From NCBI GenBank assembly GCA_001244265.2, contig CDLV01000005.1, positions 1,612,001 through 1,676,000 on the forward strand: DNA of 64,000 nucleotides, given 5' to 3'. Shown here in pieces: positions 24,201-25,659 of the stretch. The translations under genes and the position numbers were made by a program. The notes under the pieces were generated by a model. It saw only the letters and a list, made by a program, of their open reading frames with translations. It did not search any database and was not told where the DNA came from. Positions within the stretch are counted from its first letter, which is position 1, and the number at the start of each line of letters is the position of its first letter. This DNA is from Microbotryum violaceum. Lineage: Eukaryota.

Positions 24201-25659
24201 ACAGCGACTTGTCCGAGACCATGTGCGAGGTGGCCCCCGAGTCAACGACGAAAGAGTTGGTGCGAAGCTGGCGGCGACGTGCGAGAAAACCGGTGGCGAT
24301 ACATCCGACATAGTGTTGCGAGTCGGCGGTCGAGTTCGCCGTGTCGGCCTTTTTGCCGTTCTCGAGAGCCCTTTTGCAGTCGAAAGACCAGTGATTCTGC
24401 TTGCAGGAGCGACAGGGTCCTGGCGGCGGGTGTGTCGCTCTCACAGGGCACTCCGCCACACGGTGCGAAGGGCTGCGACAGGCGAGACACTTGGGACGGG
24501 TAGGACGTGACGACGACGAGGCAAGAAGGGCCGATTGGGTGCTGGAGACGTTGGTGGACCGGAGTTGAACACGCATGCGGTCGGCGAGCGAATCGATGAT
24601 GGGGAGAGCTCGTTGAGTGCGCTGTTCATCGGTGAACGATGCTTGAAACTCTCGAGGGACGGGTGAGCGATGGCGAGGAGGAGTGTGGCGAGAACATCGT
24701 TGATTGTGGTCTTCGTATCGATGATTTCTTGCGCAATAGCTTTGAACTCCATGATCCAGCCGTCAAATTCGCCAACGGTGCGGGCATGGGCCGGAAACTC
24801 CACAGTCGGGAGAAGAGCTCGAGCGTGCGAGTGGCGTCGTCAGGAGCATACCGCGATTTCAGCGTCGAGTACATTTTGGGCGCTGTGAGGTCAGCGGTAG
24901 GGATTGCGTCGAGGACTGCCGAGACTTCGGCCGAGTCGATCGAGTTCGCAAGAAGCTCACGTGCCACGACATCGCGGGCAGAGCGGTGCGAAGGTGTCCA
25001 GTCGGCGGGCACGATCCCGTCGAGGACGTATGAGCGGATGTCGTCCGCGAGGCAGAGGCGAAGCTGGCGTGTCCAGCTCGCAAACGTCTTGGGCCCATCC
25101 AAGCGTGCGTGCTTTGGAAAGGCGGGGCGAGAGGTGCCGGACGACGTGGCGGATGTGGTGAGACCCGACAGCAGCGACGTAAGTGCGGCGAGCTGTTCGG
25201 CGGGATTGTTGGGTGGGCACCCGTCGTTAGGGGCGACGACGTGTCCATGCCAGCGGTAGGTCGATGGCGAATAACCTATGAGACAATCACCACTACTGTC
25301 AGGAGAGGTTGATTGTTGAACAGAAGTGGTCTATTTCAGCATACCTATGAGACAATCACCACTACTGTCAGGAGAGGTTGATTGTTGAACAGAAGTGGTG
25401 AGAGGGAAGCTAAGAAACAGAAAGGGGACCCGCGCTGAGATAGGCCCAGTCGCGGGTGAAGTTGCTAGCGCGCTAAGGCAGTCGCGCGCGCCTAAGTCCC
25501 CACCACAAGGGGGCGGCCTAGTGGGCACGCGCACGGATCCACCCGGCGCTGGCGCGCTGAGTCAGTCGCGCGCGTTTAAGTCCCAGCGCAGGGGGGCGGG
25601 CTAGCGGGTGCGCGCAACGACCGAGGCGCCTCTGCCGAGCTGAGAGTGGACTTGTCACA
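21272..25659 (-). mobile_element. Ty1/copia element B3 with an internal integrase deletion (5' LTR 25277-25659; shorter 3' LTR 21272-21583)
   Basis: B-type LTRs, PBS, G-run PPT; junction at gtcgagag 24030-24037 joins sequences lying about 818 bp apart in B1. Confidence 0.9.

Follow-up and report, generated by a model that had tools for sequence, protein, structure and literature searches.

The window, i.e., the complete stretch of 64,000 nucleotides analyzed here, is situated on contig C3 of the sampled 33-Mb assembly (20 contigs) and is occupied by a nest of Microbotryum-type Ty1/copia elements. In the family C element, integrase precedes reverse transcriptase (rve at 36874-39492, RVT_2 at 39315-41417), which is the Ty1/copia order, and the B' element has the same arrangement on the minus strand. 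The presence of RVT_2 and rve distinguishes these elements from the Penelope-like type, which combines a telomerase-like reverse transcriptase with GIY-YIG and operates without integrase or tRNA priming. The family C reverse transcriptase is 89-99% identical to its best matches, all of them named Microbotryum proteins, and ~50% identical to Rhodotorula proteins. When candidate LTR pairs were checked for 5-bp target site duplications (TSDs), 10 of 17 pairs passed in family B and 2 of 7 in family C. A Ty3/gypsy element (RVT_1, gag) resides inside the nest at 53162-56408 on the minus strand, a partial A LTR directly abuts a second A LTR at 7899-8150 and thus represents an insertion within its own family, and the start of the A3 gag frame features a perfect 33-bp in-frame repeat (6.1 copies at 27493-27694), of which another 2.1 copies are present at 3040-3109.

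LTRs of three families, A, B (including B') and C, have ends built as unit 1 - spacer - unit 2 with the primer binding site (PBS) next, the units comprising 54-63 bases. A family B copia 5' LTR with TG...TA ends is found at 25277-25659 on the minus strand, to which all positions of this LTR refer, and is followed by a PBS of putative half-tRNA type (25265-25276) and a gag-like frame. Its unit 1 (25345-25399, 54 nt plus G), the predicted first exon and putative R region, forms a weak hairpin (z -1.4) and is identical to unit 2 (25277-25330), which is directly preceded by a hot-spot base (25331) at the predicted strand-transfer junction. Judged by sequence signals, the spacer, unit 2 and the first G of the PBS make up a predicted intron of 69 nt (25276-25344) that opens with a donor-like GTATGC (25339-25344), includes therein an upstream ATG with a short frame and carries a branch-site-like CTGAC (25298-25302) 23 nt before the acceptor G. 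The first ATG of the predicted spliced leader lies at 25246-25248. Further B unit pairs are present in the 3' LTR (8793-8915) and the 5' LTR (13705-13827) of a TSD-proven element on the minus strand (8793-14087) and in a 3' LTR on the plus strand (26514-26636).

Pattern searches of the genome gave 233 matches to the B spacer, 70 to the C spacer and 588 to an A motif. The first 100 listed of the 233 B and of the 588 A places were used for sampling, and 98 stretches around listed B and C matches and around B matches from a further search, together with 40 around part of the listed A matches, yielded 146 B, 82 C and 106 A arrays, in which one-unit LTRs are under-counted because loci were picked via the spacer. 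Copied insertions were removed before counting, as were two broken C arrays; prior to these removals, two-unit LTRs numbered 111 (B), 21 (A) and 67 (C). Identity and shuffle statistics for family A rest on 45 of the 106 arrays. As arrays are related by ancestry, independence is overstated and the p-values given below are optimistic. B and C matches mostly form one dense cluster per contig (C1, C2, C3, C5, C7-C18), as for centromeric nests, and A matches are found on chromosome arms too. The same insertions recur at L032-L036 and L139-L142 (C5, 1.90-1.96 Mb), pointing at segmental tandem amplification; these copies were left out.

A preliminary description of the window had proposed that the two units evolve in concert within each LTR, and its examples proved accurate. 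Both units are of the T form in the B3 5' LTR (25303, 25372) and of the C form in B1 (8819/8888 and 13731/13800), the same nine differences characterize both units of the B' 3' and 5' LTRs (28603-28725 and 33535-33657, minus strand), which belong to a TSD-proven element with four identical units, and both A2 units (8418-8622, plus strand) differ from the A1/A3 units at the same three sites. The exceptions that had been named, a 5' LTR at 16922-17044 with T as hot-spot base and a pair at 50130-50252 with a mismatch at a CpG (both on the plus strand), are real and show one mismatch each at unit position 46. A third is present in a family C 5' LTR (48133-48255, minus strand) with two mismatches, and units are identical in 10 of the 14 multi-unit arrays of the window. 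The caveat that some variants could stem from parallel CpG decay applies to the headline site, unit position 21 (25310, 25379), which is a CpG, recurs on several backgrounds and therefore proves little on its own, whereas the concerted signal survives CpG masking. Across the genome, masking of every site touched by CpG leaves 96 of 102 two-unit LTRs in family B with identical units, 19 of 21 in family A and 41 of 62 in family C; when all sites are considered, the value for family C is 26 of 62. The mean within-LTR unit distance amounts to 0.07 (B), 0.19 (A) and 0.42 (C) as compared to 1.75, 0.99 and 0.95 upon shuffling, and the observed distance was reached by 0 of 5000 shuffles in each of six tests. 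In a tree of 21 distinct CpG-masked unit pairs from 111 B arrays, units do not cluster by position, which needs seven changes at a shuffled mean of 6.4, in agreement with what the preliminary description had expected. Rare non-CpG variants such as 6A in L057 occur in both units, and 13 of 13 B' LTRs carry, in unit 1 as well as in unit 2, a change outside CpG that lies 4 nt from the end of the unit. The pattern in family C is less clear-cut, with many discordant sites, and one of its TSD-proven elements, L004, contains a unit-2-only change in both LTRs that counts against the model proposed below.

Comparison of unit 1 with unit 2 in 10 TSD-proven B elements yields 3 differences in 1026 bases, and comparison of the 5' with the 3' LTR of the same elements yields 15 in 2533 bases of U3 and 3 in 540 bases of unit 1. 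The units are thus no older than the insertion, which excludes the old static duplication that had already been argued against. A tandem pair of ~84 nt in U3 (25472-25644, minus strand), which is not concerted, was available as an internal control, if an imperfect one in that already diverged repeats convert less: within an LTR its members are 79-80% alike and identical in 0 of 95 cases, and across LTRs they are 92-98% alike when compared by position, i.e., they sort by position. This opposite behavior argues that the end units are reset at about insertion time by a process that does not act on all LTR repeats. It is highly improbable that a static duplication was homogenized after insertion by gene conversion or unequal exchange between neighboring units, aided by parallel CpG decay. 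Most discordant and several shared variants indeed reside at CpG sites (21 and 46 in B; 28, 35 and 49 in C), but the signal remains after CpG masking, the rare variant of L057 is common to all four units, the U3 pair has not been homogenized and conversion yields neither the hot spot nor the polarity described in the following. Static duplication with parallel CpG decay was rejected on the basis of the CpG-masked test and the U3 control. Linkage to U3 does not separate the models (Mantel r 0.36 for unit 1 and 0.38 for unit 2).

In family B, the base before a later unit is not G in 16 of 138 junctions, falling into four haplotype groups, and the base before unit 1 is changed in 0 of 124 (p 2.6e-5); the other 14 spacer positions exhibit a single change in 136 full-length spacers. 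Family C features a comparable asymmetry at position +4, which is changed in 10 of 65 unit 2 and in 0 of 65 unit 1 copies (p 0.0013). As this hot spot marks the 5' edge of unit 2, we infer that copying proceeds from unit 1 to unit 2, and we read the changes as untemplated or cap-templated bases that may be added where strong-stop DNA ends. Kulpa et al. in 1997 reportedly noted errors at the strong-stop junction of retroviruses. C is in excess at the hot spot (9 of 16) and would equal the base before unit 1, but this was given no weight as it is too weak and absent in family C. Indirectly, the position of the hot spot also suggests that the units probably behave as the R region of the LTR, and the original designation as U5 is probably wrong. 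Re-templating of unit 2 from unit 1, be it with or without splicing, is well supported and very probably takes place, while the earlier wording "at each retrotransposition" is too absolute, since one-, three- and four-unit LTRs exist and unit number differs between the LTRs of some elements.

The ends of B and C LTRs furthermore resemble introns. In both families, the spacer, unit 2 and the first G of the PBS comprise 69 nt and end with TAG, the length being equal though merely 33 of 69 aligned bases match. Donor-like starts read GTATGC in 136 and GTATGT in 67 of 205 B and C spacers, with GTATGC in 136 of 138 B spacers, and a branch-site-like CTGAC is located ~23 nt before the end of the piece in both families; in all 124 multi-unit B arrays the last unit has an unaltered branch region. 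The family C 5' LTR pair at 36599-36721 (plus strand; 3' LTR pair at 41511-41633) has the donor GTATGT, the branch GCTGAC and the 69-nt intron shape. For comparison, four introns read by eye in an actin-related host gene measure ~63-73 nt, and two of them contain GCTGAC 20-25 nt before CAG. The B and C pieces thus show the sequence features of U2 introns, namely a host-like GT donor, a branch 15-25 nt before YAG and a suitable length. In family A, the branch CTYAC is a weaker match and the donors are GTGAGC and GTGTGT. B and C LTRs end at TA and rely on the first G of the PBS to complete the predicted acceptor AG, so that a 3' LTR has an acceptor only when the target supplies the G, which applies to 31 of 77 non-5' LTRs in family B and 21 of 53 in family C. 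The predicted splicing would take out an upstream ATG within the donor-like GTATGC. In modelled leaders, a frame of 80 codons or more begins at the first ATG in 42 of 54 B and 18 of 25 C cases after splicing, as compared to 1 of 54 and 0 of 25 before it. This contrast is weaker in family A (14 of 24 spliced versus 7 of 24 unspliced). When contigs of X1 and X2, which we guess to be RNA, and of X12 and X13 were compared over 24900-27700, U3, spacer and internal parts were evenly covered in X1 and X2 and the joins of LTR and flank were DNA-like; the units exceed the assembly word, such that a splice would be hidden in contigs. The B and C units fold weakly (z -1.2 to -1.4), and strong folding was seen for the A unit with its upstream arm (z -4.8). 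A conserved hairpin was given no weight because just this latter combination folds strongly.

We propose, with a probability of roughly 0.6, that a copia clade reverse-transcribes spliced genomic RNA and keeps its spliceosomal intron as an R duplicate that would be rebuilt by first-strand transfer in every cycle. Family A would have two introns sharing AG|GT in a manner reminiscent of recursive splicing, and the LTR arrays would preserve traces of past templates, be they spliced, half-spliced or unspliced. The assumption that splicing of the 5' LTR causes intron rebuilding is probable and constitutes the best model. In such an LTR, U3 would be followed by unit 1 and the intron, consisting of spacer and unit 2. 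Transcription would begin with the first base of unit 1 or close to it, and the host spliceosome would cut spacer and unit 2 from the 5' LTR RNA; in families B and C the acceptor would depend on the initial G of the PBS, a base that the 3' LTR would lack. At the 5' end of the packaged RNA, unit 1 would then adjoin the PBS, and the 3' end would comprise U3, unit 1, spacer and unit 2 in this order. Minus strong-stop DNA would copy unit 1 and usually land on unit 2 at the RNA 3' end. A new LTR would thus inherit unit 1 and spacer from the previous 3' LTR, its unit 2 being derived from unit 1 of the previous 5' LTR, so that unit 2 would be rewritten in most cycles and the intron restored despite a spliced template. 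Landing on unit 1 would lead to a one-unit LTR, and copying of unspliced or half-spliced RNA to a three-unit LTR. The likely use would be removal of the upstream ATG and gain of an intron by the transcript in an intron-rich host. As far as can be judged from the DNA, concerted change, reset at insertion age, the hot spot, the family A polarity and the splice-like signals support this model.

In family A, the predicted acceptor sits inside the LTR, unlike in B and C. The spacer consists of a 67-70-nt GT..AG piece and a second GT opening a putative intron that ends at the CAG of unit 2, as exemplified by the A3 pair (27163-27370, plus strand) with predicted intron 1 at 27226-27295 and intron 2 at 27296-27370. 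The piece comprises 70 nt in A2 (8481-8550), is exactly absent from the pair at 2774-2911 (plus strand) and is present with 68 nt in spacer 1 and missing from spacer 2 of a three-unit A' LTR (35991-36265, minus strand). Among 80 de-duplicated multi-unit A arrays, 29 contain one spacer with and 20 one spacer without the piece; in the remaining arrays it is present first and missing later (27), present twice (1) or absent twice (3), and there are 0 arrays lacking it first but keeping it later. All 27 mixed arrays, which span 12 spacer-tail tags, hence show the same order (sign test p 0.0005). Spacer tails agree within 32 of 35 A arrays of at least three units, indicating that the shortened spacer stems from the same lineage. 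We read this polarity as the expected trace of half-spliced RNA that had landed on unit 2. Piece-less LTRs are common, with 20 + 3 of 80 arrays devoid of the piece throughout and 27 devoid of it in a later spacer, which, as an indirect test, speaks against retention of the HIV-2 type where only unspliced RNA is copied. The A piece is bounded by direct repeats of 8-13 nt in 65 of 65 cases and the B/C intron by 55-nt units, and deletion by the polymerase would therefore yield the same junctions. It is conceivable, albeit unlikely, that strong-stop reverse transcriptase jumps from unit 2 to unit 1 on unspliced RNA and then lands on the 3' unit 2, the splice signals being incidental or relevant to translation only. 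If confined to strong-stop synthesis, such jumps would produce the same junctions, hot spot and polarity; every removed piece is flanked by direct repeats, and U3 deletions occur too (L055, L057). In arrays that retain the A piece in the first spacer, however, the polymerase would have had to drop it from 27 of 29 later spacers by means of repeats of only 8-13 nt, and poorer concordance would be predicted near the PBS, which is contradicted by the B' change 4 nt from the unit end in 13 of 13 LTRs. Jumping also leaves the donor, branch and acceptor motifs and the common 69-nt length in B and C unexplained. In a few A copies, spacer tails match the flank of unit 1, which is only suggestive. The 3' end of the first A intron (27226-27295) resembles the unit 3' end (27308-27370), and this predicted intron may represent an older duplicate whose divergence began when re-templating ceased.

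Unit number varies between arrays, with 22 one-unit (an under-count), 111 two-unit, 12 three-unit and one four-unit arrays in family B and 19, 52, 33 and 2, respectively, in family A. Within the window, one-unit B LTRs are represented by an intron-less form at 21272-21325 and a B-like 5' LTR at 52250-52303 with the PBS directly after it (both on the minus strand), and a single family C unit is located at 51525-51578 (plus strand). Arrays with at least three units are enriched in 5' LTRs (11 of 13 versus 47 of 111, p 0.006). In the TSD-matched elements L056 and L106, the 5' LTR is intron-less and the 3' LTR intact, which we count in favor of the splicing model. In the TSD-matched elements L023, L063, L079, L120 and L121, the 5' LTR exceeds the 3' LTR in unit number, and here the model needs extra steps. 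In Ty1, the second transfer uses a copy of the RNA 5' end, and LTRs of unequal unit number fit such a transfer; later recombination is possible, too. As unit number varies, repeat turnover contributes. Tandem-repeat birth and death, in which off-register strand transfers add or remove units in no fixed direction, would account for this variation in B and A arrays and for the enrichment of unit-rich arrays in 5' LTRs. As the entire explanation it is quite unlikely, given that it predicts the hot spot before unit 1 and not, as observed, before unit 2, that both A spacer orders would be expected where 27 of 27 arrays show one, and that the A piece would be duplicated along with the unit, which is seen in 2 of 80 arrays.

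By standard strong-stop transfer, as outlined in passages of PMC6894440 and PMC6088434, a new LTR receives U3 from the RNA 3' end and R-U5 from the 5' end. The Microbotryum elements resemble standard Ty1/copia elements in gag-PR-IN-RT order, LTRs and 5-bp TSDs but differ in that R seems doubled, with transfer landing on the second copy. The words "intron", "splic-" and "primer binding" are absent from passages of the Microbotryum transposable element preprint (10.1101/2022.08.03.502670). HIV-2 contains a spliceosomal 5'-leader intron of 140 nt that overlaps TAR and whose removal raises Gag translation; spliced RNA is kept out of particles, and the intron is thus retained via unspliced copying (PMC3315320). 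The location in the 5' leader is shared by the intron predicted here from sequence, whereas in our model spliced RNA would be the template and the intron would be rebuilt from a duplicate. Penelope-like elements likewise keep a short intron near a terminal repeat, i.e., a 5'-UTR intron in the pseudo-LTR (75 bp in Penelope), and the significance of its retention is called unknown in a passage of PMC8557442. Birth of introns by duplication of an AGGT-containing segment is reported by Hellsten et al. 2011 (PMC3265369), and the duplicated segment provides donor and acceptor there as it would at AG|GT here, such that an origin of this kind fits. In that case, a one-time event in a host gene was presumably followed by divergence of the copies, whereas the copies studied here appear to be renewed. 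A motive for keeping an intron may be offered by Cryptococcus neoformans, a member of another subphylum, where intron-less transcripts accumulate poorly (PMC3744415). A search of the literature by title and abstract start, with most subscription journals outside its range, retrieved no description of an LTR intron rebuilt by strand transfer.

Introns are normally lost when spliced RNA is reverse-transcribed, and LTR elements thus keep splice sites only by copying unspliced RNA. If the proposal holds, copying spliced RNA yet rebuilding the intron would be a new solution, the element could look like a host gene in an intron-rich fungus with translation gated by splicing, and one PBS base would possibly tell the 5' LTR from the 3' LTR. 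It would also provide a testable model for intron retention in retroelements, which passages of PMC8557442 present as unexplained for Penelope-like elements. A practical warning is that repeats within LTRs cannot be dated by divergence.

A PBS motif of the putative half-tRNA type is present in families A, B and C and would match the anticodon arm of initiator tRNA-Met, as in half-tRNA priming of the Ty5/Drosophila copia type. In the 5' LTRs, its ATG form is carried by 1 of 54 copies in family B, 5 of 25 in family C and 1 of 24 in family A. A genome search for the host primer tRNA gene did not find it and returned a single match that is not a tRNA gene; a tRNA intron could hide the gene. PBS variants are family-specific and mostly deviate from the ATG form, which suggests that the primer seems not to be copied into the PBS. 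In Ty1, the primer is not copied into the PBS either. The PBS ATG is present in families D and E and absent from most A, B and C copies. Two other copia families, one of them with a 96-bp LTR, share the PBS type (45706-45717 and 6433-6444 in the window, minus strand; also L005, L010, L019, L036, L038, L056 and L076), mostly keep its ATG and have no doubled unit; the build with two units is thus not required, which counts against the model. A metagenome scan yielded 11 loci of 31-37% identity, and upstream of six PBS-like sites no repeat exceeded 9 nt, these loci being too distant to be informative. At L052 (minus strand, 377), a family C LTR that is inserted in a 96-bp LTR bears a few extra PBS bases at its end, and at L154:1501-1525 a PBS is joined straight to a telomere-like CCCTAA stretch.
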